A stretch of 64,000 nucleotides of DNA from Candidatus Heimdallarchaeota archaeon (GCA_019057375.1 DXJF01000011.1:64001-128000), one strand, 5' to 3'; positions 4,611-63,422 are shown, numbered from the stretch's first letter. Translations and numbers: made by a program. Notes: generated from the letters alone by a model not told the origin.

Positions 4611-4685
4611 ATGATGTACAATGAAAAAAATGACCCGGATGAAGGAGACGGAGACATTCTCCCCCCAGCATGGTCTCCAGGTTAA
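4611..4685 (+). CDS. YDP/PPxWxP family peptide, copy A: MMYNEKNDPDEGDGDILPPAWSPG (24 aa)
   Basis: Translated by hand; paralogous to 7 other copies with synonymous changes; conserved upstream cassette. Confidence 0.8.
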   Translation: MMYNEKNDPDEGDGDILPPAWSPG

Positions 4686-4896
4686 TCCTCCTTCCTTTTT
4701 TGTTTTTACTCACTAAACTGCAATTAAACAACTTCTAAATTGTATTCAATCTTTGTAGATTAAATCAATCGAAGTAAGACTTTATGACTAAAATCTTTCA
4801 TTACTCACTTTATCATTCTTTTCTCTTGACATTTTTTCTTTGGGGTGTTTTAATAGTTTTGTTGAACTAGTAGAGTACCCTTTCCAAGAGTGAGAT

Positions 4897-4971
4897 ATGA
4901 TGTACGAACCAAAATATGATCCTGAAGGCGGAGACGAAGGTATTTTACCACCTATGTGGTTCCCAAACTGA
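4897..4971 (+). CDS. YDP/PPxWxP family peptide, copy B: MMYEPKYDPEGGDEGILPPMWFPN (24 aa)
   Basis: Translated by hand; SD-like GAGTGA and conserved upstream cassette. Confidence 0.85.
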   Translation: MMYEPKYDPEGGDEGILPPMWFPN

Positions 4972-4976
4972 AAAAA

Positions 4977-5074
4977 TTTTAGTTGATGAACCTCTTTCTA
5001 TAGCTAGCTTCAATATTTTTCTTAACAAGAATTTTTATTGTAAACTAAAATTAGCTGACAATAACTCTCCTAGA
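4977..5074. repeat. 98-bp direct-repeat copy of the 23S rRNA 3' trailer (matches 15211-15308)
   Basis: Direct comparison shows 2 mismatches; includes the processing-stem arm ttagctgacaataactctcctaga. Confidence 0.95.
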
Positions 5075-5151
5075 TAAGGTATTTATTTTTGAGATGATTA
5101 ACGGAAAAAGATAAATTTTGTCTTCTGTACTCTCAGTAACCATCTTAGTAT

Positions 5152-5763
5152 TTAATTCACTTGAGAGATTAATTCTTTTCTTTTAAATATTGAAGTATAT
5201 TTATTTTGAATTCGAGAAGTTGGTTTCCAATCTGAATTGTTATTATGTCCCTTAAAACTACGGTATACTATGCGTTTTCTGCCTTTACCATCAATGAAAT
5301 ATCCATTAAACAATACTTTTCCAAATTTCCAGTCAGTTGAATCTTTTGGGATTATAACTGAAACTATTTGAACATTTCCATTATCGGATTTTATCGGAAA
5401 TGCTTTCTCATCCTCATAATCTAGAGGAGGAGAACTCTCATAAGACGGATAGATTGCAATTTGTATCTGTAATTTAACTAAGATACTTATACTCCCAGGA
5501 TTTTTAAAACTAATACGAAGAAAATGTGTAACAATATCTTCAGAATAACGAGATTGTTTAAGCCCACTTTCTACAAGTTTTATCCAAAATATTGCTAATT
5601 TTGGTTCATTGAATCTAGTTTTTCTTCTTGTATAATATAAGCTAATGAATGATGCTACTAATGCACAAATAGATATAATGTCCAAGCTTTCCATTGTTTT
5701 GAGATCCCTATTTAAATTAATAGCATATATGAAATTTACAAATTGATTGAATGAAAGTAACAT
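5152..5763 (-). CDS. hypothetical protein with N-terminal TM helix
   Basis: ORF track; hydrophobic IISICALVASFISLYY; true start possibly later (MESL). Confidence 0.5.
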   Translation of the reverse strand: MLLSFNQFVNFIYAINLNRDLKTMESLDIISICALVASFISLYYTRRKTRFNEPKLAIFWIKLVESGLKQSRYSEDIVTHFLRISFKNPGSISILVKLQIQIAIYPSYESSPPLDYEDEKAFPIKSDNGNVQIVSVIIPKDSTDWKFGKVLFNGYFIDGKGRKRIVYRSFKGHNNNSDWKPTSRIQNKYTSIFKRKELISQVN

Positions 5764-5883
5764 GTTTCAGACAAACAATATATTACTCAAACGTATTTAA
5801 AACCCAAAAAAATTCTACTATAACTAGCTTCAAAATTCACTTAACAACTATTTTTAGTTCACAAAAAATAGTTGTATATTAAC

Positions 5884-7455
5884 TCAGTCATCTAGAGTTA
5901 TAAAATCCGTAAGAAGTTTCTGTTGAGTTGAAAATGTTCCATCTTTAAGTCTCTTAATATCATCTATTATTCTTGAAATTGTTTTTCTGTTTTGATTAGT
6001 AATTTTATGTTTTAATTGTTCAACAAGTTCGTCACTTGAAATTAAAACAAATTTCTTTTCAGAGTTATTCTTTGTTTGTGATTCTACGTACAAGCACCAG
6101 AATTTCACATTTTTGGCATATTGAGGATAAATAACTAAGTCTTTATGTGTTAATGCTAAGGGGGATTTTTTGACTTCTATAATTTCTAATGAACCATCAG
6201 GCTCTTCTATAAGTATTTCGGGTAATATCCAATTTCTTTCTTCAACCTCTGGCGTCTCAATCTTTGGTTGCCACTCCCATTTTTTTCCCTTAAATAGTTG
6301 TTGCGCAATTCTGTGACAAATCCTTTCCCATAGATATCCTATTATCTCTACACCACCCACTAGATTACAAGAAGGACACCCCGATTTGTTATGGACTCTA
6401 TTGTTGATTCTTGCTACCCACACATGTTTAGAATTTTTCGAACATTGCCACCACACTTCTCTGTGAGAACCTCCAATTACTTCTTCTGGTGTCAATCCTT
6501 CATTTTTTGTTGGATGCCACTCTTTTGCTATTTCTGGATAAAGAGTTTGTAGTGAATTAAATGGAGATAATCTTCTATGAGAACATATTGGACAACCTGT
6601 TTTATATGGCCCAGTTCTATGATATACTTTAGAATCCCACACATGTTTAGAATTTTTCGAACATTGCCACCACACTTCTTTATCAGATCCTGCTATTATT
6701 TTTTCAGCTGTAAGTTCTCCATTTAGTGTTGGATGTAGTTCTTTAGCTATTTCAGGAAATTTTGTAGCAAGAGAATTCGTAACTGAGACTTTTTTATTTG
6801 CACAACAAGGACATCCATAACCTCTTCTAGTTCTACTATCAATAACTGCTCTCCAAATATGATCTGGTCCTTTATCACAAATCCAATAAACTCTTCTTCC
6901 TGAACCAGGAGATACTTGATTTGGAAGAATCCCTCTATTCTTATCATAAAACCATTGAGCACCTATTTCTGGGAACAATGCTTCTAAAGATTCTTCTTCT
7001 AAAACTAGTTTTCCTGAACAATATGGACATCCTGATTTATTTATACCGCTTCTATCATTTATTTTAGCAGGCCAGTTATGTTTAGGGTTTTTCAAACATT
7101 GCCACCACACTTTTTCACTAGATTTCATAATTGCGTTTTCAGGAGTAAAATCTCCATTTTTTGTTGGATGCCATTCAGCTGCTACTTCTGGAAAGTTGAT
7201 TGCTAATGAATTTGTAACTGAAACTCTTTTACTAGCACAAAATGGGCATCCTGTAATTTTTTTTACTCCGGTTCTGTTGTTTGGACTAGTTGGCCATTCA
7301 TGGTCTGGTCCTTTCTCGCATTTCCACCAAATTGGTTGTTTGGAACCATAGGAAATATTTTCGGGTTTTAAGTTTCCATTTTTTGTTGGATGCCATTGTT
7401 TAACTAGTTCAGGAAAATCAGCAATAGTTTTAGTTTCAATTTTATTCTTTGACAT
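5884..7455 (-). CDS. tandem Zn-ribbon (treble-clef, DUF4379-like) repeat protein with C-terminal PD-(D/E)xK-like nuclease domain
   Basis: Five WxCxK..H.W......R....GCPxC units; C-terminal PDGSLEIIEVKK. Confidence 0.7.
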   Translation of the reverse strand: MSKNKIETKTIADFPELVKQWHPTKNGNLKPENISYGSKQPIWWKCEKGPDHEWPTSPNNRTGVKKITGCPFCASKRVSVTNSLAINFPEVAAEWHPTKNGDFTPENAIMKSSEKVWWQCLKNPKHNWPAKINDRSGINKSGCPYCSGKLVLEEESLEALFPEIGAQWFYDKNRGILPNQVSPGSGRRVYWICDKGPDHIWRAVIDSRTRRGYGCPCCANKKVSVTNSLATKFPEIAKELHPTLNGELTAEKIIAGSDKEVWWQCSKNSKHVWDSKVYHRTGPYKTGCPICSHRRLSPFNSLQTLYPEIAKEWHPTKNEGLTPEEVIGGSHREVWWQCSKNSKHVWVARINNRVHNKSGCPSCNLVGGVEIIGYLWERICHRIAQQLFKGKKWEWQPKIETPEVEERNWILPEILIEEPDGSLEIIEVKKSPLALTHKDLVIYPQYAKNVKFWCLYVESQTKNNSEKKFVLISSDELVEQLKHKITNQNRKTISRIIDDIKRLKDGTFSTQQKLLTDFITLDD

Positions 7456-7566
7456 CCAACCAGACCTTTCTTCTTCTTATTCCTGTATATCTAGAAGATT
7501 TTGCTTCTTAAAGTTAGTTTCTGATCGAACCAATTTCCATACACATACTATGAAGCTCATCCAAGT

Positions 7567-7635
7567 TTATTATAACTTGAATAGTCTTGACGAGTAGTTA
7601 TCTCGTTCCCCTCGTATGTGGAGAGGGGGAATTTG
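7567..7635 (-). mobile_element. putative IS200/IS605-like right end / omega-RNA 3' part followed by candidate guide
   Basis: Minus strand: hairpins cccctc..gagggg and acgag-ataacta-ctcgt, then TCAA (7590-7587), then gactattcaagttataataa; overlaps the end of the TnpB ORF. Confidence 0.5.
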
Positions 7636-9499
7636 ATTTTAACAATTGCTCACCCTTATCTTTTACATTTTTTGCTGCATTTATGTGAGTATTCACCATT
7701 TTACCACACTTTTTACATTTTGCGATGTCATAAGAACCAATTTTTCTTTCGACTTTTCCTCCACAACCATTATGTTTTGTACTTGTTCCTCTTGGATTAA
7801 CATAAACAAGTTTAACCTTATATCCAAGTATTGAAGACGCTAATAATACTGCTTTTTCAAATATTTCTTGATTATCAGGCATATTGTATATTGCTTTAGC
7901 TAAAGCTCCTCTTTTTCCTCTAGGATCTATTTGAAAGTCTTCGACACAAAGTAGATTACTCTTATTTTTTACAATTTCAGCAGCAATGAAATGAGTTGCA
8001 AAATTTTTAATTTCTTCAAGAATGTTTTTCCTTCTTCTGTAGACTCTGTACAATTCTCCCTTAGTCTTAACATACCCTCTAGTGTCTTTCTTCTTTCCCT
8101 TATTCGTTAAACTATAGCTCAACTGAGGGATAATAACATTTGATAGTTTATTGTATTTTCTAGCTAGAAGCAACAAATTCTTTGATAAGGGCTCTTTGTT
8201 AGAAAGCGCAATCATATGTTCACTAACTCGGTTAATATCTACTCCTATGGATTTTACTTTCTTTGTACTCCCTTTCTTTGACAATTGCTTGAGAAGTTTT
8301 GTACTAAGAAACTTACTGGGAGTTCCTTCTATAATAACAGAAACTCTAACCTTATAGCTAGGTGAACTGTTGCTGCGAATGAGCAATGATCTAATTCGAG
8401 CTCCTTTGTTAAGATATTCTAAGATTTTCTTTGAAAAGATAAGCTTACATGTAATTCTAGGGAATCCTCTAAGAACGAATCCCAACTCGAAATACCCATC
8501 TTTTCTTGCAAGTTCCGTCATAACTTTTGAACTACCAGGTCTGAGAACAACATGTTTTGGACACATAATTAGTTGGATAGGTAATCTTCCTTTCTTTTTC
8601 TTTCTAAATGGTGGATGAACAATTTTAGTTGGGTGAGTTTTCTGAATTATTTCTATAACAGTCTTCTCTAATGTAGAGTAGAGTGCGAAGATCACTATTG
8701 CTCTTAAAGCAGAAAATAGTCTTCTATTTTTCTCACCTATTGATTCAGCAATTCTTTTACTTAAAAATTTCAAGCTTTTCCAACGAGAAGGATGTACAGT
8801 ATTATTCCACGAAGTAAGAAGAGGTGCTACAATATCCGCCTTTAAAGCTAACAAACGTAAGTTTTCTAGAAACACATTTGTTTTTGAATTGATTGGTTTT
8901 GATGTTAGTTCTAGGCATTTGGACTTATTACACTTCTGTATCGCTCTTTCGAATTCTTTCTGTGCTAAAAGTGGAAGCATAGTGTTGAATTTTAATCGTT
9001 GATTGCAAAATTTGTCTATTTGCCTTCTTGTACTGGTTAGTACATTGATTACATATAATCTCTTTACCTTCCATCTGTAGATAAGAATACTTTCAATTCT
9101 AGGACTTCTTCCAAAAATATACCATTCAATTGCTTGCTCTTTCCAATTCGACATTAAATCGAAAAATACTTCAACTTTCCTCTCTAAGGTAACTGTGCCT
9201 TTGGCTGCTAAAAATAAGTAAGTATATGCACTATCAGCAATACTAGGACTCTTCTTTGTGATTCTTTTGATGTTAGTTAAACCCACCATATTCGGCATTT
9301 TGGGTTCATTTCTTGCAATTGATAATGCAGCGTTTATTGCCTTTTTATCATGAATTAAATCTTCTTGTCTGACTTGCAAACCTTTTACTCTTTGGTTAGC
9401 TTCTTTTTCTTGTATTCTACGTTTCTCTCTAGTACCCTCAAACCTAACACCCATTTGATAAGTGCGAGTGACTAATGTTTGCTTTGTTTGAGAGGACAT
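7598..9499 (-). CDS. tnpB: large (633 aa) TnpB/Cas12-like RuvC protein
   Basis: RuvC-I IGVDINR, RuvC-II LCVEDF, VNPRGTS, Zn finger HNGC..CKKC, RuvC-III NTHINAAKNV; N-terminal RTYQMGVRF strand. Confidence 0.85.
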   Translation of the reverse strand: MSSQTKQTLVTRTYQMGVRFEGTREKRRIQEKEANQRVKGLQVRQEDLIHDKKAINAALSIARNEPKMPNMVGLTNIKRITKKSPSIADSAYTYLFLAAKGTVTLERKVEVFFDLMSNWKEQAIEWYIFGRSPRIESILIYRWKVKRLYVINVLTSTRRQIDKFCNQRLKFNTMLPLLAQKEFERAIQKCNKSKCLELTSKPINSKTNVFLENLRLLALKADIVAPLLTSWNNTVHPSRWKSLKFLSKRIAESIGEKNRRLFSALRAIVIFALYSTLEKTVIEIIQKTHPTKIVHPPFRKKKKGRLPIQLIMCPKHVVLRPGSSKVMTELARKDGYFELGFVLRGFPRITCKLIFSKKILEYLNKGARIRSLLIRSNSSPSYKVRVSVIIEGTPSKFLSTKLLKQLSKKGSTKKVKSIGVDINRVSEHMIALSNKEPLSKNLLLLARKYNKLSNVIIPQLSYSLTNKGKKKDTRGYVKTKGELYRVYRRRKNILEEIKNFATHFIAAEIVKNKSNLLCVEDFQIDPRGKRGALAKAIYNMPDNQEIFEKAVLLASSILGYKVKLVYVNPRGTSTKHNGCGGKVERKIGSYDIAKCKKCGKMVNTHINAAKNVKDKGEQLLKSNSPSPHTRGTR

Positions 9500-9633
9500 A
9501 GTGTAACTGTTAATATTATATGTACTTTCATTTATAAACTGAGAAAAAAAGATGATTCTTCTTGAATTATTATTGTATTACTTCTGTACCATTTATTTTT
9601 GTTTTTTTACTCTTAATAAACAGTACATATGTT

Positions 9634-12093
9634 CTATGATAATTTTAACCAGAATTCAAAATCATCTAAAACTTTGATGTGTTTGTCTCCTACGATTACA
9701 TCTGCAAGAATTTCCAAAGGAATTTCCTCGTTATGTCCTTGGCTTTTAGCTTGAATTATATTCAGAGTGAAATCCCAATCATATGACCTTTTATTATCTA
9801 ATAACAGTTTCTTGATCTCCTTTAAACCTTTTATTCTAATCTCATCGTCATTTTCATGAGCATAAAGATAGAAGTAGTACTCTAATTCAATCGATTCTTT
9901 AAATCTTGATTTTTCTATGTACTTCATAGCTTTATCTAGGTATTCAAACCCTTCTTCCCTTCCTTGAGAAAGAAGTAAAGATGCATAATTAATCAAGTTA
10001 TTTGCATTTTCAGAATCTATCTCATTTGCTTTGTTAAAATACTTCTCAGACATTTCAAGATTCTTGAAATCATGATACATTAGCACTGCAAGTTGTCCCC
10101 AAATCTCTGCATTCTTAGGTTCAATTTTTATTGCTTTCTTCAAATGGGATTCAGCCTTTTTATAATCATTATAAATCTTAGACACGAAATATGAATAATT
10201 ATAATGACCAAATGCATTGTTTGAATCTAACTCAAGTGCCTTCTTATACATCTTTTCTGATTCTGAATAGCGTTTCACTCTTTTCTGCAGGAATATAGCA
10301 TAATAAACATAGTACGTAGAATTTTCTGGAGATTTCTCAATTGCCTCTTTTAGGTATCTCTCCGCTTTTTTATAATCTCCTAATTTCTCTGAATAAAAAT
10401 ATCCTATATCTAGAATATATTCAGCATTTTCAGGATTCAAAACTAGTGCTTGATTATAATATGAATTAGCTTTTTTGATATCCTCTCTTGAATAAGCTAG
10501 AAACCTTGCATAATTTAAAACTCCACGTGAATAATTAGGATTTGTATCAATTGTTTTTTCAAAATACTCCTCCGCTAGATTATAGTTTTTCCGAATTTTT
10601 TCTTGAAATAAAGCATAACCTTCTAAAATTGTTGGCATATTAGGAGATATTTCTAAGGCTCGTTTGTAATACTCTTCAGCCTTTTTATAGTTTTCATCAT
10701 CCTTGACAATTTCCCATAAAAAGCCTGCGTAATTACTTAGGTTTGCAGAACTGTGTGGGTTCAATTCCAATGCTAATTTGTAGAATTCTTCTGCTAATGT
10801 GTGATTCCCCACTATTCTATGCAGGAAACTTGCATAATTTACTACTAAAGCTGGAAATTTTGGGGCAACAGATAGTGCTCTTTTGTATATTTTCTTTGCC
10901 TTTTCGATGTTTAATGTAGACTGTAGGAAGAAAGCATAATTAGTTAAAAGATTGATATTATTTCCAAAGATTTTCAGACCACTTTCATAAATGTCAATGG
11001 CTTTATCAGGATTCTTCCATTTCCATTCGGCAGCCTTCAACTCAACGTATTTCCAAGCTAGTAATTCTTCGCTTAGTTCAGATAAAGCAAACGAAAAAGC
11101 TACTGAAAATTTCTTTTGTTCCTTCGGATTTTTTTGTTCAATATCTTTTGGTATCTCTCCTAATCGTTCATAAAATTGATTAATAAGTCCTTCAATTCTT
11201 TCTTTGTCTGGAAGTTTCAAAGAAAATTCCTTTAGAATCAATAGCATTAGTTCATCAAAATCTCTATGCTGTATCCATACACCATCCCTATCTTTAATCC
11301 AATTACCTAGTTTGGTGTTTGGAAACTCATTTCCTATCCAATAAACTCCCCATGGAAGAGCGCTTTCGGGGAGTTTTGAAAGAATTTCGGCTATGCTCCC
11401 GTCATTTCCACCATATCCCATGAATATAAGTCCTGTATCAGAAAGAACCTTTTGAATAGCTACTTTAGTGTTTTTTGCAAGAGTCTTAGTTTCAATTTCT
11501 GTATTTTTTGGCTCAAGTCTAGCATCACCATGAAGTTTAATGACTAAAGGTTTCACCCTCGAAGATCTTACAAAACCTGCTAAAGTGTCATGCACAATTA
11601 CAAGTGGTTTTTTATTTGTGTATAGATATAATGCATCTGCAATTAAATCATCAAAATTGACAGTCAAAGCTACATTACAATGCTTTCCATATTTTTCATC
11701 TGACATTAAACAAGAAAGGACACCATAACCAAATCCTGGATCTTTTTTATCAATTATGTTCTCAATTTCCTTTTGCCTTTCTTCAGGTTTATGAAATAAT
11801 AATTGAATTATTTTACCATAAAATAAAGCTGCTTGAGAGTCATCATAATTTGGGAGAATCTCTTTGATATTTTGAAGAGAATAATCTGCATCTTTTCCTT
11901 TTCTCTGCCTAATTAATCGAAAGAGCCATCTTTTTGCGAGTTCTCCTGCTGTTGGAATACCTGAAGAAACAGAACACCCCGCTCCAAGAAAGAACACATA
12001 TTTGCATTCTTCATAATTATCCATATTGTATTTGATTTTTCTTATGAATTCTTCAATATCCATCTTTTTTATTTCTATATTTGCTCCTTCCAT
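9634..12093 (-). CDS. SIR2-domain + TPR-repeat protein (probable defence NADase)
   Basis: FLGAGCSVSSGIPT, TVNFDDLI, KLHGD, FMGYGGND; about 10 TPR-like repeats (..YKKALELDSNNA..). Confidence 0.85.
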   Translation of the reverse strand: MEGANIEIKKMDIEEFIRKIKYNMDNYEECKYVFFLGAGCSVSSGIPTAGELAKRWLFRLIRQRKGKDADYSLQNIKEILPNYDDSQAALFYGKIIQLLFHKPEERQKEIENIIDKKDPGFGYGVLSCLMSDEKYGKHCNVALTVNFDDLIADALYLYTNKKPLVIVHDTLAGFVRSSRVKPLVIKLHGDARLEPKNTEIETKTLAKNTKVAIQKVLSDTGLIFMGYGGNDGSIAEILSKLPESALPWGVYWIGNEFPNTKLGNWIKDRDGVWIQHRDFDELMLLILKEFSLKLPDKERIEGLINQFYERLGEIPKDIEQKNPKEQKKFSVAFSFALSELSEELLAWKYVELKAAEWKWKNPDKAIDIYESGLKIFGNNINLLTNYAFFLQSTLNIEKAKKIYKRALSVAPKFPALVVNYASFLHRIVGNHTLAEEFYKLALELNPHSSANLSNYAGFLWEIVKDDENYKKAEEYYKRALEISPNMPTILEGYALFQEKIRKNYNLAEEYFEKTIDTNPNYSRGVLNYARFLAYSREDIKKANSYYNQALVLNPENAEYILDIGYFYSEKLGDYKKAERYLKEAIEKSPENSTYYVYYAIFLQKRVKRYSESEKMYKKALELDSNNAFGHYNYSYFVSKIYNDYKKAESHLKKAIKIEPKNAEIWGQLAVLMYHDFKNLEMSEKYFNKANEIDSENANNLINYASLLLSQGREEGFEYLDKAMKYIEKSRFKESIELEYYFYLYAHENDDEIRIKGLKEIKKLLLDNKRSYDWDFTLNIIQAKSQGHNEEIPLEILADVIVGDKHIKVLDDFEFWLKLS

Positions 12094-12140
12094 TAATAAC
12101 AGATATTAATTTTCAGCTATATAAATCTGTGATAATACTA

Positions 12141-14858
12141 TTAGAGATGTTTTATTGAATCTTCATTTATTTCTCTTTTACATTTGGGACAAATAGTTTT
12201 AACTTTCATCCATTCTTGAAGATGATTGTTATGAAACGTATGACCACAATCTATTATGTAGACTAAATTTTCTTCTGCTACCATGTAATTCAAACATATT
12301 TCACACTTTCTTGTTTTCTTTCCACAGTTTAAACAAATAAGTGGTCCTCCATCCTTTACTCTTTCAAGCAAAGCATCGCAGAAGTAACAGAATAACTTTT
12401 CATCTTGCTTCTTAATATTGCCAACAGTGCTTTTCTCTTCAGTGATTTTTACCTCTTTCTTAGGATTTTCTTGTAGTCTACTCTGTTTAATTTTTCTGAG
12501 TACTACTCCTTGATTTGTGAAAAACTCTGCAAGTGAAGGTTTGCTCTGTTCCTTTTTCTGCTTTCCAAATCTCATATATCCTATAAACAATATGAAAAAT
12601 AATCCAGAAACAATAACTGACCACGGAAATAGCTTTCCAGAATTATTCTTCTTCAGATAGCTGAATAACAACCATCCAGATATAAAGAAAACATATTTTG
12701 CATATCTGAAAAGGAACTTGTTTTTACTATGAAGATCTTTGTAGAAGGTATTTGTAGAAGAGTTGACTACTACTGAAAACCAAAAGAAAGTAGAAGCAAA
12801 TAGTATGGTTGTAAAAACATTGAACGAGATTTTACCCAAGATAACAAATTCAAACCCAGTATTATCACTGTTAGCTATTGAAACTAATCTCCCAAGAATC
12901 AGAAAGAATCCCACGTTCTTCAGGATTACAAAAACAGCTGCTAATCCCAGTAATACTTTTCTCATGTTACCTAAAATACTGAAATTGAAGAAACGCTCTG
13001 TTTTAATATATCCTCCATTGAATTGAAGTTCGTATTCTTCATCATCAAGTTTTACTTTAGCATTCCTGTTTGTTTCTTTGTTTTTCTTTTCTAAATGTCT
13101 TACTAAAACAATTAATGCTATTGCATCTAGAATGAGACTAATGCTCATTAGAGTTGGTAATGAAGGTTTGAAAGGTTTTGAGTCACTGCTTGGGTTAGGA
13201 AGTTCAAAGGGGTTCGTCGGTGTGACAACTTCTTCAGAAGTAGCTGCGAGTCTGTAGCTAAGCTCCCCTATTGTAACCGATAAACCTTCACCATAGATTG
13301 ATAATATTATTTCTATTTCTTGATAACCTTGGTTAATTTCTATGATTACTCTATCATTGATCGTTTGTTTATCATTGAATGATTGAAAGAAAACCTGATT
13401 ATCGTTTATCTTAATTCGCAGATTGAATTGATCAACAGAAGAGTAAAATTCGTTGTATAAATTCAAGGAGAAAGAAAGATTGAAGGTAGTTGAAGAAGAA
13501 TCAAAATAGAAAACATCTGTGAATTTAACTGTTAAAGGTCCTGTAATTGATGTTTCATAAGTTTTTGAGGAGACCATCGTTTTTTCTAGAGTGCTATTTT
13601 CATCAAGTATAGGAACGGGCTCTATTTCAATAGTACTGGTATTGAGTAGGTAAAAAATACCCTCTCCTGTTGCTATTCCATAAACCCGAAAAGCAATATT
13701 AGAGGAGTAATTTACAGTGTAGGTATCAATAATACTTTCAGGATAGCTGAAATGAATAGCCCCTGAATAGATGACATCGGAATCCGAAAGAATTTCATAA
13801 TTTAAAATAGGTAAGATTGCTGAACCTATATAATCATAATATAACGAAATGAACAAATTCTGTTCACTAATGCTAGAAAAAGGTTTTAGTGATGATAAAT
13901 CAAAGGAATGGTCTACTGAAGGGCCATCGCAGGAAAACCAATCAAAAGATTCTTCTGGAATTTCGTCTTCGAGAAGTTGGAGTTCTCCAAACAAAGCTAT
14001 ATTAGTAAACCATATCTCATCTACACCTAGGTTAACACAGAAATAGAAACGGATTATGTTCGTCCCCTGCTCTAACGGAATAGAAAAAGAGACAATAACA
14101 AAAGGAACTTTAGAAAAACTTGTAGTAGCGATGATTGTGTTATTTATTTCTACTTCTAAATATCGAGAAAGGGCACTAAAGGAATTTGTATTAAAAGAAA
14201 GAGTTACGTTTAAAGTGGTGGAACCATTGATTGAATAAACTGCTGTTTCAACATAATCACTTCTGACACCTGAAAGATCTCCATAATAGCCTATTTGACC
14301 AGGATTACAAGGAAGGGAGGTTAAATTCTTATCAAGAACAGGAATTGTAATTGGTTCTATTGTTGATGAACTTAATATTTGAATAGCGCCAGAATTAAGG
14401 ATATTCGAAGTTTTACCTTCACATGAAATAACAATAATCATTGAACCGATGAAGTTTTGAGGATAAGAAAATGATTTAGAAATAGAGTGTTCATTAGAAT
14501 CCTGATAAATACGGTTAATGTTAATTTCTACTTCAGTAGTGTCCAAATACAAAATAATCGTTAATCCATTTGAGTCAGTCCTATCACCAGAAAAGAGAAA
14601 AAATATAGTTAAACTATTATATTCTTGAAGTTCAAGATTGACTAGTTCAAAAGTAAAATTTTGTTTTACAGAAGTTGAGTCATAAGAATACAGTATATTT
14701 TCATCTATTATAGTAGAGCTATAAATAGAAGGGGGATTAGGAACGTTATTTTGATTTCTTGCAATAGCTAAAGAACTAGTAAAACAAAAGAGTGTTAACA
14801 CTAATAACATGTTTCTAGTTGTGTTTTTCATTATCAGTTTTATAATCCGAAAATTCAT
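12141..14858 (-). CDS. membrane protein: signal peptide, ~550 aa ectodomain, TM bundle, Zn ribbon and C-terminal RING-H2-like domain
   Basis: CEIC...CGHTFHNNH...W...CPKC at C-terminus; FCYFC..CLNC; hydrophobic segments. Confidence 0.8.
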   Translation of the reverse strand: MNFRIIKLIMKNTTRNMLLVLTLFCFTSSLAIARNQNNVPNPPSIYSSTIIDENILYSYDSTSVKQNFTFELVNLELQEYNSLTIFFLFSGDRTDSNGLTIILYLDTTEVEININRIYQDSNEHSISKSFSYPQNFIGSMIIVISCEGKTSNILNSGAIQILSSSTIEPITIPVLDKNLTSLPCNPGQIGYYGDLSGVRSDYVETAVYSINGSTTLNVTLSFNTNSFSALSRYLEVEINNTIIATTSFSKVPFVIVSFSIPLEQGTNIIRFYFCVNLGVDEIWFTNIALFGELQLLEDEIPEESFDWFSCDGPSVDHSFDLSSLKPFSSISEQNLFISLYYDYIGSAILPILNYEILSDSDVIYSGAIHFSYPESIIDTYTVNYSSNIAFRVYGIATGEGIFYLLNTSTIEIEPVPILDENSTLEKTMVSSKTYETSITGPLTVKFTDVFYFDSSSTTFNLSFSLNLYNEFYSSVDQFNLRIKINDNQVFFQSFNDKQTINDRVIIEINQGYQEIEIILSIYGEGLSVTIGELSYRLAATSEEVVTPTNPFELPNPSSDSKPFKPSLPTLMSISLILDAIALIVLVRHLEKKNKETNRNAKVKLDDEEYELQFNGGYIKTERFFNFSILGNMRKVLLGLAAVFVILKNVGFFLILGRLVSIANSDNTGFEFVILGKISFNVFTTILFASTFFWFSVVVNSSTNTFYKDLHSKNKFLFRYAKYVFFISGWLLFSYLKKNNSGKLFPWSVIVSGLFFILFIGYMRFGKQKKEQSKPSLAEFFTNQGVVLRKIKQSRLQENPKKEVKITEEKSTVGNIKKQDEKLFCYFCDALLERVKDGGPLICLNCGKKTRKCEICLNYMVAEENLVYIIDCGHTFHNNHLQEWMKVKTICPKCKREINEDSIKHL

Positions 14859-15308: not shown

Positions 15309-15671
15309 ATCTGACGAACCAATTTCCATTTTTCCTAACTACGCTTGAGCAATTAGTGATTGTGGGCTAAACATCTCGCCGAAGCTCGACGCGTACACCC
15401 CAATTCTATCAACCGGATCTTCTTTCCGCGCTCTCATCTATATCGAAGGTTACTGTCACCAGTCCCCTTATAGTGATACAGAGTGGGTGACTCGTTTCGA
15501 GAGTAGCTTCGAGCGTTGATGCATTCCGCTCTTATCTACGAGGGCTTAGCTACCCGGCGATACCCTTTAGGATAACCGGTACACCAGAGGCCCCAGCCGC
15601 CTGTTCCTCTCGTACTGTGGAGACTTTACTCTCAATCACCCGCCAGCACCATCAGATAGAATCCAACCTGT

Positions 15672-15826
15672 TTTGCGTGAATTTAAGCCCGAGTATTGAT
15701 CTTCGATAGAAGGGATTTCCCGTAAGGGGGGTTTACAACTATCAAAGACTTTTACATACTTGGATGAAGTTCAATTGAAGTATTACTACTATACTTCTAC
15801 AGAACTCCACTATAGCTTAAATCCAT
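15672..15826 (-). other. 155-nt BHB-type intron in 23S, near E. coli position 2599/2600
   Basis: Interrupts GUGAG|ACAGG; terminal stem uggauuuaagcu/ggcuuaaauuca, bulges AGA and AAA around helix UGUG/CGCA; cleavage after the 2nd bulge nt restores the exon. Confidence 0.85.
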
Positions 15827-15975
15827 CTCACAACGGTCTAAACCCAGCTCACGTTCCCTTTTAATGGGCGAACAACCCCACTCTTGGCGGCTGAATCACC
15901 ACCAAGCTAGGAAGAGCCGACATCGAGGTAGCAAGCCGTGAGGTCGATGTGAACTCTTACCCACGACAACTCCGT

Positions 15976-16364
15976 TCAGGGCTGCGCTTGCGCTATGCGC
16001 ACATCGGCTTTAAGGATCAGTTGTCACCTGGTATAACGACATAGGCAGTTACATAATCCTTAACCTTATCTTCATGTCCTCACGCTTATTTTTGGCTCTC
16101 CATCTTTCGTGTTTATTTAGGGATTTATCTATTCTAAATGGATTTGTGACAGAAATTAGATTCACTCTGCTCAAGTTTTGTAGCCTTTTAATGGCGAAAA
16201 CTTTCGTTTCCTCACGTGGAAGAAAGACTGAAGCTATAATTAAATTCACTCAATTTTACTTTTCTGCCTCGGAAAAGATGGACTTTATCAATAAGCGTTA
16301 CAGACAGAGAGCACTCTTTGTGATAAACAATCACTTCTTCGTGATAAACACTCAGAAGCGCAGT
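15976..16364 (-). other. 389-nt BHB-type intron in 23S, near E. coli position 2450/2451
   Basis: Interrupts GGGGUA|ACGG; stem cugcgcuu/aagcgcag, bulge UAA, helix GGGG/CCCU, bulge GAA. Confidence 0.85.
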
Positions 16365-18934
16365 TACCCCTGGAGTAACTTTTCTGCCACCTCCGCCGCC
16401 TACTAATGGCACTGCGAAGGATCGCTAGGCCCTGCGTTAACATCTGCGAACTGTATTGGTGAGTTCACAGTCAACCGAGCTTTTGCCCTTGCACTCTTCA
16501 CCGGATTTCTGTCCCGGTTGAGCTCGGCTTTGGGCCCTCTTGATATCTTTTCAAGAGGCTACCGCCCCAGTGAAACTGCCAGGCAGGGGGTGTCCCCCTC
16601 GCAAGAGGTAAGTCGTACCAATGCGCAAGGTCAGTATTTCAAGTTCGACTCCCCTACATCCCGGAGAATGTAGGATCAGCATCTCCTGACTATGCTATGC
16701 ATGCACACCAATACAACAGCCCCTGACAGCAGTAAAGCTTCACAGGGTCTTCTCTTCCCGATGGTGCGCTCCAGACTGTTCGCTGGACTGTGGGTTCAGT
16801 AGGCTTCGGGTGGAGACAGTGGGCACCTCGTTGGTCCCTTCATGGACGTCTGTAATTAGCAGACAAGGCATTTGCCTACCTTAAGAAGCTCATAGTTAGC
16901 TCCGGCGTTTACTGGGTCTTAGCCTGGTTGAACCCAGGTTTCAATCACCAGCACCGGCCAGGATTCACTAACTGTACTAAGGCTTTCGCCCTTGCAGTTA
17001 GCTATGTTTTTATTAAACAGTCGGGTGCCCCTAGTCACTGCGACCTGGTAAGGCATACACCTTCCCAGGCATCCCTTATACCCAAGGTACGGGACTAATT
17101 TGCCGATTTCCTTCACCCGAGCTCCCCTAACACGCTTTAGCCTTCTAAGCTAGCCACACCTGTGTCGGTTCTGGGTACGGTCACGCGTAATCGTTCTCTT
17201 TGCTTTTTCATGGGCTGTTGGGGTTGATGGCAGCCAGCAACCTATGGCCGGCCTCTTCATCTATTCTTCTGGTTCTCACCTTAACGGTTCTTCCCAGAAT
17301 TCTATAATTTAACTAGGATATGCTCCTAGGCCACCTACCCACCAGCGTTAGCTCAGAGCTTGCGTCGCCGCGTCTATACGCGTGGTACAGGAATATGAAC
17401 CTGTTTCCCTTTCGAACGACTCGTTTTAAGATCGTCCTTAGGACCGACTAACCCTTGGCTGACGAACAGTGCCAAGGAACCCTTGGGCTTTCAGCGATGA
17501 GGATTCTCACCTCACTATGCTCCTACTACCACCGAGATCTGCAAATCTAATCGGTCCACTGGGAATCACTCCCCAGCTTCTGCCCAACCAGATCGCCCCC
17601 CTACCTGAGACTCTTGCGGAGTCCAAATGGGTATCGGGACCCGGTTTAGCCCCGTCCATTTTCTGAGCCCAACAACTCGATGAGTAAGCTGTTACGCTTT
17701 TTTTAACGGATAGCTGCCTCTAAGCTTACCGCCTCATTGTCTTAGTCGTTGGACGTCATTCTGTTTAACATTTAACCGGGATTTAGGGCCCTTAACCCAT
17801 TGTAGGGTTGTTCCCCTTTCGGCCATATCCCTTGCGGATACGCGCCCGTCTGTCGCCTTCTACAGCGCTTGCAAGTTCGGAGTTGGAAGGGAGGGTGAGG
17901 ATTTCACTCCCCAGAACCTCCCGTCCGTAGCTCTACCTCACAAGCCGCCTTCAGCGACGCTATCCTGTGGTGATACTTCGGGGGGAACCAGCTATCAGCA
18001 GTTTAGATTGGTCTTTTGCCACTATCCCCAACTCAGAGGAATGAATTGCATATCAATAACCCTTCAGGCCTCCACGCTCCTTTCGAAGCGCTTCACCTTG
18101 GTCAGGGATAGATCAACTGCTTTCGGGTCTTACACCTGTGACTTCACGCCCTTATCGGACGTCGCGCCTTGCCGAAGCTGCGCGCTGGTCGCTTTCGCTA
18201 CGCCACCGTATTAACTTAGGCTTGCCACAGACATAAACTCCTCGGCCCGTGTTTCAAGACGGAACGGATAACTCTGGTCCTCTCAGCTCGTACTACCACC
18301 TCACGATGGGTTCCTTCACCGAGACTCTACCCTTTCAAGCCATCCACGTCTGTTACCATGTAGTTTCAGGGACTTTTCACTCTCGTATTTCGAATACTTT
18401 TCAACTTTCACTCACGTTACTAGTGCGCTATCGGTCTAGGGGAGTATTTAGGCTTGGGAGTTAGTCCTCCCATATTTGCGCGACAAATCCAAGCCACGCT
18501 AGTCTTGATACTACTAAGCCGAGCGCTTACGTTTACGGGGTTATTACCCTCTATGACGCCCCTTTCCAGGGGCCTTCAACTTCACGCTTTCGGTCTATGT
18601 TGTAGTCAAAACACCACATCTACCTTAATTTTTCAAAAAAGGAATTCGGTTTGGCCTGTTCCGGTTTTACTCGCCGTTACTACCGGAATCACAATTGTTT
18701 TCTTTTCCTGCAGGTACTTGAATGTTTTGGTTCCCTGCGTTCCCCGCCATTACTGGCTGTTACAGTTTATTAGACTGTAACCGGAAATCCGATTCGGGAA
18801 TCTGTGGATCGTAGACTGTCTGCGTCTTCCCACAGCGTTTCGCCGCTTACCGCGCCCTTCATCGGCTCCCTAGCCGAGTCATCCACTACATGGCGTATGC
18901 ATAGTGTAGGTTACTCTAGAAATCAGTTTTCGCC

Positions 18935-19670: not shown

Positions 19671-19675
19671 CTTAC

Positions 19676-20780: not shown

Positions 20781-20855
20781 TTAAGCTGGTGACCAAAATG
20801 GTGGAGTTATGCTTTCGTCGCCATCTTCAGGATCGTATTTCGGTTCATTCATCAT
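20781..20855 (-). CDS. YDP/PPxWxP family peptide, copy C: MMNEPKYDPEDGDESITPPFWSPA (24 aa)
   Basis: Translated by hand; upstream ggggtgctttaatag...taacctttcctgagatgaac cassette. Confidence 0.85.
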   Translation of the reverse strand: MMNEPKYDPEDGDESITPPFWSPA

Positions 20856-21035
20856 GTTCATCTCAGGAAAGGTTATCATTTTAGTTAGACAAAGCTATTA
20901 AAGCACCCCAAAGAAAAGACTGACAGTTACAGCTATTTCTGATTGGAAGAGTTGGCTAATAGATAATTGGCTTGATGAGTTTGAAAGATTAAAACCTTAT
21001 TTTCTTAATTCAGAGCAATTATGACAACTAAAAAA

Positions 21036-24100: not shown

Positions 24101-24323
24101 AAGGACCTCTTTTTCCTGAATAGAAAAGTTGTTTTGGAGTCCAGCTACTGCTGCTTTGGATACTTTTAGCTTCCCCAATGCAGATTTTTCTTCCGTTAGT
24201 ATAAAAAGAACTGTCTTCATAGTTTTTTTCTATAGAAAATTCATCATATTTGTTTGATAGAATATGGTATAGTGCAGTTAAAATTTGGTAATTAAATTTA
24301 TGTCCAAGATGCTCATCTATCAT
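21186..24323 (-). CDS. STAND/Avs-like protein: N-terminal PD-(D/E)xK-like nuclease, P-loop NTPase, helical C-terminal repeats
   Basis: YEDSS...IGEAKS; Walker A GDSASGKS; Walker B LIILDD; 1045 aa. Confidence 0.65.
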   Translation of the reverse strand: MIDEHLGHKFNYQILTALYHILSNKYDEFSIEKNYEDSSFYTNGRKICIGEAKSIQSSSSWTPKQLFYSGKRGPLLQLLVRSKGVETFVFYSNIPIKDEFFSDSKIIIPKEELSDICKIIPENYSEMFGSKITVDILSDFIKKVEFKCIQLDSLEDHIIEIAEQYGYQTNKSNIRYFLGHINSKNYCKGTTIKKHIIHDYLREKGSSSYIYLEIEKNSIEHVLRKDQVFESKQKIPVWSNFEEGKIVERRVLKECIQELEKQKRTIVLGDSASGKSVFLKHVGFILAKKRPVYYLSFKEENREKIEELCKILLYDRKEPLIILDDIHENLNSFNNICKLHNASSKSLVLAGTRLIEFKIRGNSEFERNPILKITAEEIAEEIVKKHIPNDSNLRNHNNFSKLQIQLSKYWQDLWLLEFALNSIDHEKCEVHEEEIYQYILESLDEVFNHKELDQFYDCVFILSVFSKHNIRVEKNYLIQNLKIHNHILEYLLEKHEIIEHLLYYPVEIVHISNVWNLYEKHNIHHIGSAYFQITYILSHQSVAQLYYSAIKFSNCISYNLRLLLGERYEDDFNLFKEYILHSNEDYKIKILKFLMNDNTKGIVDYLLSDGEIMKYLLESMKYEEDLYFITMLYERFIISKYQKEYLNILIKKFKNVIDCKMFVQSIESLFWQMSNKNIRIFLRKIKIRKILKRINWILPDSSFSFLSTIINQNYNLAKIASGIIGKSIILSKTIEHEDFIHLINFMNKLFYYNLGKNKQFNIKKTRIFDYFTKRIDSETNLSQIEIILDFLGETDSINLVLNKKNIKNLVEKVNCSEDLIGVKCLLSSASLFSEDLISRILVLLDKDVLYEKIKTEKDLHDIGVTLYSLRYIAKNDLLLDINSILDSDFIKNKLEDKWNIVDLFHFIKGLCVFNKDLTVFLIDKINSESIILNYDYSFDTVVYPFLEIAGLEEDIAIKLIPNLVQLIRNKEDVLWLTYAATHVESNYNPKILLDIFHHINPSLILEIMEDTYAGDIFMSNLIDGIGKRISYMISHEIIKYVENIN

Positions 24324-30352: not shown

Positions 30353-31863
<1,511 letters not shown>

Positions 31864-61074: not shown

Positions 61075-61398
61075 TTAGTTCTCTCCCCATATTTTGAATA
61101 ATTGTTTCAAAGAATGAGCAAGGATGTTATTATCTTTGAATTGATATATTAAGATTCTACCAAATCTCTTTTCCTTTATCAACCCTACATCTGTTAGATA
61201 TTTTAGATGCCCTTTTACTGCAGAATGATTGAGATTTATACTTCGTGATATTGCAGAAATGTTTAATTCCCCTAATTCAGCTAATAACTTTAGAATTCTT
61301 ACCCTTCCTCTTGAGGAGAAAACATCTTCTAATGGTATTTTAAGCTGTATCTCTCTATCGTTTTCCTTTGTCATTGTTTTTCCCCTATTTTTCAGCAT
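61075..61398 (-). CDS. ArsR-like winged-helix regulator downstream of cdc6
   Basis: VFSSRGRVRILKLL..ELNISAISRSINLNHSAVKGHL. Confidence 0.8.
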   Translation of the reverse strand: MLKNRGKTMTKENDREIQLKIPLEDVFSSRGRVRILKLLAELGELNISAISRSINLNHSAVKGHLKYLTDVGLIKEKRFGRILIYQFKDNNILAHSLKQLFKIWGEN

Positions 61399-62608
61399 AT
61401 TCTACTGTTTTCTTTTGATTTTCGATTGACTTCATCAGAAAGAGTTCTATGGTTTCTACTGATATGTCTGGTATACTAATTAGTGTAGTTTTACCACGCA
61501 TTCCTTCCCCTGAGATTTTTGTACTGATTACATCTTGTTTTGATAATTCTTTCAGATATGACCAGATTTGGGTATGCCGTCTAGGTTCCTCTTCATATTC
61601 CTCACAAACTAATCTATAAGAGCTAATTGCATCATTTGTTGAAATATATGCGTTTTTTGTGTGTTTTAGTTTTCTTATAATCGCAAGCAGTATTAATTTC
61701 TGATGCAGGGTTAATGTTAAAATTACTTCTCTTCTTATTTCTGGGTGAATCAAAGCTTTTGCTTTTCTTACATGATCAGGATAAACTATAGGAGAACTCT
61801 CATCGTCAGCGCATTGGCCTGCCCCCCAAAGTATTTCTATTGCATATCTTGCATCTCCTGATTTACTTGATATATCCGCAATAAGTTCAACGGAGTCTTC
61901 GGTTATGGTACTATCATAAAAGGCTAATTCTGATCGGGATTTAATAATGTCTTTTAAATCAGTTTCAGAGTATCGATCCAAGGAAATGTGATTAGATTGA
62001 AAACTGCTTTGAGTACTCGCATCCAGTTGATGGATAAAATTCAGGTTTTTTGCTATAAAAATGTATGAAATCCATTGTTTAGCAGTCATTTCACTAATTC
62101 TAAGTAATGTGTAAAGGAAATCTGTACCTACTCTAGATATAAGATAATCAATCTCATCTAAAACTAACAAAACCTTTGGGGAATAAAAATCAAGCAATCT
62201 AATGAGAAGTGATTGTAATTCTTCAAAGGAGTAACCTCTTGGAGGAATTGCCTTATTTAGTTTTCTTGCAAGAGTGCTAATAATTAGATAAGGGCTTTTG
62301 TAAATTCTACAATTAATGTAGACAAGCAAAAAATTCTTGTTTTTATCTATATTTTCCAAAAGCTGACCAAACCGTTTTGCGAGAGTTGTTTTTCCAGATC
62401 CTGTTGGTCCAGTTATACAAATTTTTCTCAATGGTTCATCTTGTTCTTCGAAAATTGTTTTGAAGTATTTAGCTAAAGTCCTGAGTTCTTCCTCCCTGTG
62501 TGGAAGATATGGAGGGGTATATGTAACAGACAAACAACCAATGTTTTTGAATACAGTTGGTTTTTTGATTAGCGAATTAAAATATTCTTCATCTGATGAG
62601 TGCATCAT
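61385..62608 (-). CDS. cdc6: Orc1/Cdc6 replication initiator
   Basis: LPHREEEL, GPTGSGKT, YINC, VLDEID, GDARYA, winged-helix C-terminus. Confidence 0.96.
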   Translation of the reverse strand: MMHSSDEEYFNSLIKKPTVFKNIGCLSVTYTPPYLPHREEELRTLAKYFKTIFEEQDEPLRKICITGPTGSGKTTLAKRFGQLLENIDKNKNFLLVYINCRIYKSPYLIISTLARKLNKAIPPRGYSFEELQSLLIRLLDFYSPKVLLVLDEIDYLISRVGTDFLYTLLRISEMTAKQWISYIFIAKNLNFIHQLDASTQSSFQSNHISLDRYSETDLKDIIKSRSELAFYDSTITEDSVELIADISSKSGDARYAIEILWGAGQCADDESSPIVYPDHVRKAKALIHPEIRREVILTLTLHQKLILLAIIRKLKHTKNAYISTNDAISSYRLVCEEYEEEPRRHTQIWSYLKELSKQDVISTKISGEGMRGKTTLISIPDISVETIELFLMKSIENQKKTVEYAEK

Positions 62609-62880
62609 ATCGTCTCTAAGATAGTCAAGGGAATTTACTATTTATACTTAATAGAGAGACATCTCTGAAAGTGAACTCTTGTTGAAAAACGTTCTTTTTC
62701 CTATACGGGGTTTTGTTTGGTTTAAAATACAGTTTTAGAAACAAAGCCAAAATCAGAAATATCTGTAAGTGTTGAATGTAAAAAACAAACCATTCTTCGT
62801 TTCTTACTTGTCAGTCTTTTCTTTAGGGTATTTCAATAGCTTCATTCTACTATTAGAGTAACCTTTCCAAGAGTTGAAAC

Positions 62881-62952
62881 ATGATGTACGAACTAAAATA
62901 CGACCCTGATGAGGGAGATGGAGATATTATGCCTCCTGTATGGCTTCCTTAG
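62881..62952 (+). CDS. YDP/PPxWxP family peptide, copy F: MMYELKYDPDEGDGDIMPPVWLP (23 aa)
   Basis: Translated by hand; full upstream cassette. Confidence 0.85.
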   Translation: MMYELKYDPDEGDGDIMPPVWLP

Positions 62953-63178
62953 TTTAAGAAAGCTATTTTTTCTCATTTTTTACATAAAAATCAATGAGTA
63001 TTTTCCTAGTTTATCTTCATAAAATACACTATAGAGTTGTGGCTTGAAAGAAGAGATGTTGGAGTAATAGAAATCCTTGGGAGCGGTTTGGCTTTAAAGA
63101 GAGATTGGAACTCTTTTCTTCTTGGGTTTATGTATGTTCTTTCCTGTAATATTACAGTGCCTTCCAAAGAGCTGAAAT

Positions 63179-63250
63179 TTGATGTATGAACAAAAATATG
63201 ACCCTGACGAAGGAGACGATGGAATTTTACCACCTGCTTGGTTGCCATAA
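63179..63250 (+). CDS. YDP/PPxWxP family peptide, copy G: (TTG)MYEQKYDPDEGDDGILPPAWLP
   Basis: Translated by hand; TTG-ATG in place of ATG-ATG; partly degenerate upstream cassette. Confidence 0.8.
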   Translation: MMYEQKYDPDEGDDGILPPAWLP

Positions 63251-63353
63251 CTGTTAGGTTTCCTCTTTCTTTCTCTTTTTTTGTCACATTTTTCTTTTGG
63301 GTGTTTTAATAGCTTCGTTCTACTTTTAGAGTAACCTTTCCAAGAGTTGAAAC

Positions 63354-63422
63354 ATGATGTATAAACTAAAATATGATCCAGGCAATGATGATGATTTACC
63401 CCCTGGTTGGTTCCCAAACTAA
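63354..63422 (+). CDS. YDP/PPxWxP family peptide, copy H: MMYKLKYDPGNDDDLPPGWFPN (22 aa)
   Basis: Translated by hand; full upstream cassette. Confidence 0.85.
   Translation: MMYKLKYDPGNDDDLPPGWFPN

Follow-up and report, generated by a model that had tools for sequence, protein, structure and literature searches.

Micropeptide genes linked to TPR-solenoid proteins in two genera of Heimdallarchaeia suggest a peptide-recognition system

Background

The window analysed here is a 64,000-nucleotide stretch of DNA from Candidatus Heimdallarchaeota archaeon (GCA_019057375.1, DXJF01000011.1:64001-128000), in which positions are counted from the first letter. It carries eight very short open reading frames (ORFs), hereafter c1 to c8, whose products end in the motif PPxWxP. 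A preliminary description, drawn from the sequence of the window, had noticed them, had argued from their divergence that the peptide is under selection, and had proposed three possible roles: intracellular ligands or inhibitors, precursors of ribosomally synthesised and post-translationally modified peptides (RiPPs), or proline-rich stalling peptides. The locus raises two questions: are these ORFs genes, and with which partner would their products act? Comparison with related genomes identified them as genes and revealed a constant neighbour coding for a tetratricopeptide repeat (TPR) protein, as well as a membrane ATPase gene that one such module per genome usually faces. The set formed by micropeptide, TPR protein and ATPase suggests a peptide-recognition system of which we found no published description. 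The micropeptide and its TPR partner constitute two new families in an unexpected lineage, while the general kind of system, a peptide and a TPR binding protein, is already known.

Results

Detection of the peptide ORFs

All eight ORFs were recovered at the positions first described, seven of them intact (20 to 24 codons) and one, c4, frameshifted. They are distributed as follows:

4611-4685, + strand: c1, peptide gene of 24 codons, MMYNEKNDPDEGDGDILPPAWSPG; orphan with no adjoining TPR gene; the Tyr of YDP is replaced by Asn
4897-4971, + strand: c2, peptide gene of 24 codons; orphan
20781-20855, - strand: c3, peptide gene of 24 codons; orphan located between the 23S and 16S rRNA genes
32670-32728, + strand: c4, peptide pseudogene of a short subtype; the Pro codon of YDP lacks 1 nucleotide and PP is changed to PS; arm of an inverted pair with c5
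34602-34664, - strand: c5, peptide gene, MMRYYDPTDDDDFLPPEWYP; in convergent orientation to the TPR gene, divergent to the membrane ATPase gene
62881-62952, + strand: c6, peptide gene of 23 codons; first of three tandem copies beside orc1/cdc6
63179-63250, + strand: c7, peptide gene; likely start ATG at 63182; weak promoter element
63354-63422, + strand: c8, peptide gene of 22 codons; 140 nucleotides upstream of a TPR gene

As first reported, divergence between the copies is concentrated at third, synonymous codon positions, all three stop codons are in use, and the Shine-Dalgarno (SD)-like site GAG(T/C)TGA fits the tail of the window's own 16S rRNA, GGATCACCTCCT. The first codon of c7 being TTG, its true start is probably the second Met codon, ATG at 63182, and the second Met is probably the true start for the whole peptide family.

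The whole assembly (3.47 Mb, 33% GC, 159 contigs, 89% complete) was searched in six frames with a regular expression for the motif, which returned the eight ORFs and one unrelated match. Considering also the profile E-values, eight such matches in 3.47 Mb are far above chance. Neither this search nor two profile searches of the whole assembly recovered a copy outside a single 59-kb stretch. The family, described at the outset as dispersed, is thus dispersed within the window and confined to one region at the scale of the genome; since the assembly is 89% complete, a further copy may have been missed.

Coding signal

A profile built from the seven intact peptides detected about 190 copies in 22 of the 24 other genomes of the same genus, with per-genome E-values down to 4e-14 and open frames almost all comprised between 21 and 27 codons. 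We aligned 76 distinct copies in register, originating from about 20 related genomes. The mean entropies of codon positions 1, 2 and 3 were 0.59, 0.58 and 1.44 bits, respectively. At the invariant Pro codons, positions 1 and 2 never vary and position 3 reaches 1.55-1.86 bits, near saturation. The start codon, the SD-like site and the promoter are conserved across copies.

Because selecting copies with a peptide profile biases them toward conserved residues, we used an independent route in which the partner gene was located by protein homology alone and its upstream region was then inspected. At least one intact same-strand peptide ORF was present within 1 kb upstream of 48 of the 52 TPR genes found in this way, the four exceptions corresponding to locus edges, to a start-codon call overlapping the peptide and to the pseudogene c4. 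An equivalent count anchored on the promoter (69 intact ORFs out of 70) was set aside as evidence, being largely circular because the promoter model had been trained on peptide-bearing copies. The coding signal being positive in the larger alignment of 76 copies, the proposed selection on the peptide is upheld both by the codon-position entropies and by the partner-anchored count of intact ORFs. As judged from these comparisons of sequence, the eight ORFs are genuine unannotated micropeptide genes, among which c4 has decayed.

Properties of the peptides

The peptides share the core YDP-x-x-GD-x-x-I-(L/T)-PP-x-W-x-P, with at most two further residues before the stop, so that the position of the C-terminus is fixed. 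They count 17 to 24 residues and are acidic, with a net charge of about -4 (range -2 to -6). Conservation covers the whole of the approximately 22 residues, with only two or three isolated hypervariable positions, including those on both sides of the Trp, and an exact PxLxxP motif (P-P-L-W-x-P) forms the end of 27 of 66 peptides. No hydrophobic stretch was found in the peptides, which agrees with the signal peptide having been reported absent. The family also proved to be unrecognised, as first thought: the exact peptide sequences do not occur in a collection of 15 billion predicted proteins, Rfam gave no match at any peptide locus, and our literature search found no description of the peptide family, of Asgard micropeptides or of archaeal RRNPP-like systems. 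Genes of 20 to 24 codons probably fall below the length cut-offs of standard gene callers. With such a short length, and with exact sequences absent from the 15-billion collection, the whole system has been overlooked so far.

In some relatives, peptide copies have no stop and extend over 10 to 25 further codons (e.g. ...PPLWRPIRVFLLL...), and others are shortened (L039:4192-4356; L031:5420-5572; L031:16085-16180). Many TPR copies of the relatives carry 1 to 14 internal stops, so that both partners display a fast birth-and-death turnover.

Promoters, leaders and terminators

About 75 nucleotides upstream of the ORFs are conserved. Alignment over many genomes gave the consensus TTGTCA - n - TTTCTTTCTTG - n5 - TTTTA(A/G)TA - ~16 nucleotides - TAAG.ATAAC - ~7 nucleotides - GAGTGATG - ~5 nucleotides - ATG, which we read as a putative conserved upstream element, a TATA-like box (about 50 nucleotides upstream), a short leader and an SD site (GAGTGA or GAGTTGA). 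In the window, these regions are:

4525-4603, + strand: c1 promoter and leader, conserved
4813-4896, + strand: c2 promoter and leader, conserved
20855-20941, - strand: c3 promoter and leader, conserved
62801-62882, + strand: c6 promoter and leader, TTGTCA..TTTCTTT.GGG..TTT(T/C)AATAG (TATA-like), then TAGAGTAACC, then the SD-like GAGTTGA
63273-63355, + strand: c8 promoter and leader, conserved

Downstream, a run of at least five T was found within 45 nucleotides past the stop in 50 of 66 copies (76%), against 16% in random windows. Archaeal termination uses oligo-T; with its own promoter and its own oligo-T tract, each peptide gene looks like a separate small transcription unit. A scan for bacterial promoters and terminators returned nothing, as expected for an archaeon. 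In the genome to which the window belongs, the promoter element is found only at the six subfamily-A copies. We therefore rejected the idea of a wider regulon, as the element marks no other genes in this genome.

A TPR-solenoid protein as constant partner

Clustering the ORFs of 21 relatives' loci revealed one protein family present in every locus, with about 525 residues and encoded just downstream of 1 to 3 same-strand peptide genes. This partner gene was missed in the preliminary description. Two members lie in the window:

32867-34543, + strand: TPR-solenoid partner of the divergent subfamily B, 558 residues, with c4 and c5 on either side
63562-64000, + strand: 5' part of a main-type TPR partner following c6-c8, which continues beyond the window to C12:129130 (about 523 residues in total)

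The protein matches no family of Pfam (E-values up to 5), NCBIfam or PADLOC (three representatives scanned), and its sole sequence signal is a sub-threshold match to TPR_MalT (E-value 0.005-0.01). An AlphaFold2 model (mean predicted local distance difference test score, pLDDT, of 76.6; predicted template modelling score of 0.70) displays an all-alpha solenoid of about 29 paired helices, the repeat helices starting at residue 4. A Foldseek search against the PDB retrieved, with E-values of about 1e-4, the TPR solenoids of CTR9, SKI3, LGN, IFIT1/5, APPBP2, subunits of the APC/C and NprR (5dbk). Many of these matches hold an extended peptide or tail in their groove, among which the C-degron receptor APPBP2 and the quorum sensor NprR. 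According to its predicted structure, the partner, a lineage-specific cytoplasmic protein, is a TPR solenoid. A feature search of the ESM Atlas yielded unrelated hypothetical clusters only, with a recognition value under the useful range.

The family is small, with about 87 members including fragments among 1.84 billion representatives before generic TPR proteins start to appear. Public records label its members as hypothetical proteins of Heimdallarchaeota metagenome-assembled genomes, including AB_125, a lineage that we take to be Ca. Kariarchaeaceae. The N-terminal ~420 residues are variable, paralogues being about 40% identical, and the last ~65 residues (IEVLE.R.FMEAFIQVGAYKNGDPLGPALQYMAIKKCR.YGFSRLENKLL) are about 95-100% conserved in protein with saturated synonymous sites. 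This combination indicates purifying selection on a function shared by all paralogues rather than gene conversion.

Distant TPR relatives found beside ParA-like genes (L081, L082) have no recognisable upstream peptide ORF, and their membership in the system is doubtful. Beside another distant TPR relative (profile E-value 2e-14), a divergently oriented ORF of 17 codons at L080:2837-2887 (- strand) ends in EVPTPLWIPG. The peptide idea may thus extend past the two genera, in which case the profile would miss sequences that have diverged too far.

Link between peptide and TPR types

When 33 full-length TPR proteins are placed on a tree, their clades are matched by the type of the closest peptide: DEGD..ILPPAW, EPGDDDIGPPLW, EDGDES.TPPLW or a short subtype, the last pairing with a TPR subfamily of 558-565 residues. 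For one cognate pair taken from a relative, complex prediction gave a median score of 0.53 against 0.03 for the best control, a verdict of weak support: 58 of 80 solved complexes and 2 of 110 mismatched pairs reach the same mark, and scores at the mark but no higher than 0.60 were obtained by just 7 of the 80 solved complexes plus both passing mismatches. As we supplied our own alignment, these benchmark counts hold roughly. The runs agree in at least 55% of contacts with a partner pLDDT of at least 42, the peptide being modelled as an open frame of 38 residues with about 13 non-native N-terminal residues owing to the 30-residue minimum. Taken with the strong prior from gene linkage, the predicted complex is mildly supportive of binding. 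The median isoelectric point of the TPR proteins, 8.2, against a peptide net charge of about -4, is compatible with binding and too weak to count.

A membrane ATPase facing one module

The second component absent from the preliminary description is encoded next to c5, the two start codons being 185 nucleotides apart:

34850-37678, + strand: membrane-anchored HerA/FtsK-type ATPase of 942 residues, with hydrophobic stretches at residues 22-54 and 67-108 followed by DUF87/HerA and TrwB-like P-loop domains

Outside the two peptide-bearing genera, no close orthologue (at least 45% identity) was found. Of the 22 orthologous loci, 17 share an arrangement in which the opposite strand carries a peptide gene about 130-250 nucleotides away from the start of the ATPase gene, with a TPR gene further out; the orientation of the TPR gene makes no difference. 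ATPase paralogues at about 40% identity, as well as the ATPases of other genera, have no comparable peptide neighbour. The adjacency may reflect export of the peptides or inherited synteny.

Three ATPase paralogues, 40-49% identical, occur in the window's genome without nearby peptide or TPR genes (C72:12237-14903, C80:4104-6764 and C65:72904-74499), one of them with an internal stop.

Module organisation and distribution

The recurrent unit, 1 to 3 peptide genes followed by a TPR gene, forms tandem arrays of up to five modules. A single genome may contain as many as about 20 peptide genes and 12 or so TPR genes, which places this unit among the most expanded paralogous modules of these genomes. 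Modules occupy varied intergenic spots within a conserved block comprising genes for a pyrophosphatase, PEPCK, an ABC ATPase with an FtsX permease, orc1/cdc6 and the rpl1 operon. At the site of c2, by the pyrophosphatase and PEPCK genes, relatives have two peptide genes and an intact or broken TPR gene. In the window, the pyrophosphatase site has kept c1 and c2 and lost the TPR gene, and tblastn detected no TPR gene remnant next to c1, c2 or c3.

The profile search detected peptides in 22 of 24 genomes of the genus and in both genomes of the sister genus. It found none in the 4 genomes from the family's other three genera, nor in 52 genomes representing other families of the class. The distribution of the main-type TPR genes is identical, one genome of the genus (G014, 82% complete) having neither; any TPR members in genomes where no peptide was detected are distant ones. 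As found in these genome sequences, the peptide and main-type TPR system appears limited to two genera of one Heimdallarchaeia family.

In the divergent subfamily and in the EPGDDDIG clade, two peptide genes in inverted orientation stand on either side of the TPR gene. The inverted arms count 114 nucleotides and are 100% identical in one relative, G001 (L033:12374-12487 and 14304-14417); those of the window, at 32658-32728 and 34602-34673, are 76-89% identical. Such arms suggest recent gene conversion or an invertible segment.

The c6-c8 array (62809-63422) occupies the gap next to orc1/cdc6 (61385-62608, - strand), and the same arrangement is seen in two relatives (L041, L047). If a replication origin were located at this gap, the peptide module would share the region with it. 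A replication-origin role for c6-c8 themselves was dropped, as most modules sit elsewhere and the repeats are coding.

In seven relatives, modules lie beside or inside a conserved pair of genes for an ABC ATPase and an FtsX-type permease, and in three next to an M42 aminopeptidase gene (L038:3297-4148, 1463-3274; L043:7310-9142; L040:7741-8874). Their products might export and process the peptides, respectively, unless the proximity is simply a matter of synteny.

Other genes around the peptide loci

In place of the relatives' TPR gene, c1 and c2 are followed by an island at 5152-14858. It encodes a 203-residue ORF without family, a 523-residue protein with five DUF4379 treble-clef zinc fingers, a 633-residue TnpB/Cas12f-like protein, an 819-residue SIR2-TPR protein matching the PADLOC models of pAgo-associated SIR2, and a 905-residue protein ending in a RING finger. 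The 23S (15333-18910, - strand) and 16S (30353-31863, - strand) rRNA genes are about 11.4 kb apart and enclose, besides c3, the genes of a 1045-residue STAND-type NTPase (21186-24323) and of a 1647-residue protein without Pfam family (25238-30181).

Discussion

A possible role as ligands of the TPR proteins

From the gene linkage, the fold and the weak complex score, we lean, by a little, towards the peptides being cognate ligands of the TPR proteins. Among the three roles first proposed, that of intracellular ligand is the one favoured here, and with it the selection on the peptide and its absence from described families have stood; the TPR gene and the ATPase complete the picture. Binding, the direction of signalling and any export are what we infer from these arrangements, in the following way. 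Each ORF would be translated from its own small transcription unit, and the module would duplicate, diversify and decay as one unit. The cognate TPR protein would take up the extended peptide in its concave groove, where the PP-x-W-x-P end and the free C-terminus, along with the invariant YDP..GD..I.PP.W.P core, would serve as anchor. The hypervariable residues flanking the Trp, with the DE/ED/EP pattern, would choose the TPR paralogue, and the near-invariant C-terminal ~65 residues of the TPR protein would give an output common to all paralogues. The least supported step concerns the ATPase opposite one module in each genome: this enzyme may export the peptides, or may itself be what the system acts on. 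The system as a whole may serve signalling between cells, regulation inside the cell or the loading of peptides onto the ATPase.

Several observations weigh against this role. The co-diversification of peptide and TPR types could be explained by plain co-inheritance of neighbouring genes. Several peptides differing at their variable residues precede a single TPR gene, which excludes a simple one-to-one specificity. The orphans c1, c2 and c3 are intact in the absence of an adjoining TPR gene, pointing to an action in trans or to some other target. No recognisable output domain, such as a helix-turn-helix (HTH) or an enzyme, was detected in the TPR protein by Pfam (E-values up to 5) or NCBIfam (E-values up to 1). 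Finally, the ATPase is present in two genomes of the genus in which no peptide gene was detected (G014, G007).

Alternative explanations

The peptides could instead be secretion substrates exported by the neighbouring HerA/FtsK/TrwB-type ATPase, with the TPR proteins acting as cytoplasmic chaperones or adaptors. We consider this rather unlikely; it agrees with a ligand role on binding and differs from it on purpose. Models for it are provided by the recognition of C-terminal tails by EssC of type VII secretion and by type IV coupling proteins, and by type III secretion, whose TPR class II chaperones recognise the motif PxLxxP (PMC4068993). The exact PxLxxP ending of 27 of the 66 peptides, their fixed C-terminus, the two N-terminal hydrophobic stretches of an ATPase combining TrwB-like and HerA P-loop domains, and the adjacency of this ATPase to a peptide gene in 17 of 22 loci irrespective of TPR orientation would all fit. 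Yet there is one such ATPase per genome for up to about 12 modules scattered elsewhere, it also exists in G014 and G007, no channel or other secretion component was identified, and the adjacency is possibly the inherited synteny of an ancestral module. The likeness to the class II chaperones (LcrH/SycD, PcrH, IpgC), which extends to a secretion-type ATPase gene nearby, is one of motif and fold only: those chaperones have about 160 residues and bind large translocator proteins, whereas here a protein of about 525 residues is associated with a free 22-mer, and archaea have no type III secretion system. A role in cis, in which PP-x-W-x-P-stop would stall the ribosome and tune the downstream TPR gene with no function in trans, appears unlikely. 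Arrest peptides of the TnaC type are encoded by about 24 codons ahead of another gene, depend on a Trp and carry a Pro just before the stop; the length of 17-24 codons, which fits the ribosomal exit tunnel, the invariant PP, Trp and Pro at or near the last codon, and the same-strand position of most copies directly upstream of a TPR gene are all reminiscent of them. A role in cis fits poorly with the intact orphans c1-c3, with convergent copies placed after the TPR gene such as c5, with up to three tandem copies each with its own promoter, with the oligo-T tracts separating peptide and TPR genes in 76% of copies, and with peptide subtypes that diversify with the TPR clades while the ribosome is constant.

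The modules are multi-copy, tandem and rapidly renewed, and they leave pseudogenes, the region of the window also encodes SIR2-TPR, STAND NTPase and TnpB-like proteins, and IFIT proteins are among the Foldseek matches. These traits would suit a toxin-antitoxin-like, immunity or defence module engaged in an arms race within a variable island, with the TPR protein as sensor or effector and the acidic peptide as its inhibitor or trigger. We find this improbable, given that none of the three TPR representatives matched a PADLOC family, that no effector domain (nuclease, NADase, pore or other) was found in the protein, and that some modules occupy conserved sites flanked by housekeeping genes. The RiPP precursors put forward at the outset, matured by an enzyme encoded elsewhere, would account for short, similar, tandem genes whose products conserve Trp and Pro and are hypervariable at the positions flanking the Trp. 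However, Pfam scans of the window neighbours and of the conserved neighbours in 21 loci found no linked radical SAM, P450, ATP-grasp, YcaO, lanthionine synthetase or peptidase-ABC gene, the sole constant partner is a pure TPR solenoid, conservation runs along the entire peptide with no split into leader and core, and the only nearby candidates, the ABC ATPase with FtsX permease and the M42 aminopeptidase of some genomes, look like plain synteny. This proposal is disfavoured, and we regard it as highly improbable. As for the repeats being no genes at all, it is true that inverted copies flank the 1.7-kb TPR gene in subfamily B, with identical 114-nucleotide arms in one relative, and that about 75 nucleotides 5' of the ORFs are conserved, as could be expected from the ends of an insertion sequence or miniature inverted-repeat transposable element, from a non-coding repeat or from a promoter element. 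The three-base periodicity and conserved frame length, an inverted repeat limited to the peptide gene itself, a TPR gene rather than a transposase between the arms, a promoter element and copies found nowhere else in the genome, and the lack of an Rfam match leave this next to no probability. An identity as transposon terminal repeats, in particular, is effectively refuted by the codon periodicity, the coincidence of the arms with the peptide gene and the absence of other copies.

Comparison with known TPR and peptide systems

The ligands of TPR proteins proposed here have their nearest analogue, as regards gene logic, in the RRNPP cassettes of Firmicutes and phages (Rap-Phr, NprR-NprX, PlcR-PapR, PrgX, Rgg-SHP, AimR-AimP). 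In both cases a small peptide gene adjoins the gene of a TPR-type receptor, many paralogous cassettes coexist in a genome with peptide and receptor diversifying together, and the fold is of TPR type, as indicated by the AlphaFold2 model and the NprR match. The differences are nevertheless substantial. The host is an archaeon and there is no sequence homology. RRNPP peptides possess a secretion signal and a mature form of 5-10 residues, whereas those described here are acidic, 17-24 residues long and conserved throughout, with no signal or pro-sequence. No HTH or Rap-type effector domain was detected in the TPR protein, which may nevertheless contain a cryptic helical DNA-binding element. In most RRNPP systems the peptide gene is downstream of, or overlaps, the receptor gene; here the peptide genes are upstream, often in two or three copies, and no link to an Opp-type importer was shown.

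Eukaryotic TPR proteins that read short motifs include kinesin light chain (W-acidic), Hop and CHIP (EEVD-COOH) and PEX5 (PTS1). Like the ligands of these readers, and like the C-degrons of APPBP2, the peptides present an acidic stretch and a Trp at a fixed distance from a free C-terminus. Unlike them, they are free-standing gene products with their own promoter rather than motifs within a large protein, and no homology was shown.

Conclusions

If the peptides bind the TPR proteins, Asgard archaea possess a gene-encoded repertoire of peptides and receptors, whose logic of recognition would match that of short linear motifs in eukaryotes. We know of no peptide signalling described in these archaea. 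A more ambitious reading, which we hold to be fairly unlikely, would make of the modules the first peptide-based communication or secretion system in archaea, with pherotype-like acidic 22-mers exported by the ATPase and read by diversified cytoplasmic TPR receptors. Were it true, communication of this kind would be located in Heimdallarchaeia, the archaeal group closest to eukaryotes, and recognition by a TPR groove of C-terminal motifs, whether Trp-acidic or framed by prolines, would represent a mode typical of eukaryotic short-linear-motif biology. The ligand hypothesis can be addressed with synthetic peptides and recombinant TPR protein, which requires no culture of the organism. More generally, the TPR "hypothetical proteins" of Asgard archaea may have small cognate partners that nobody has sought.

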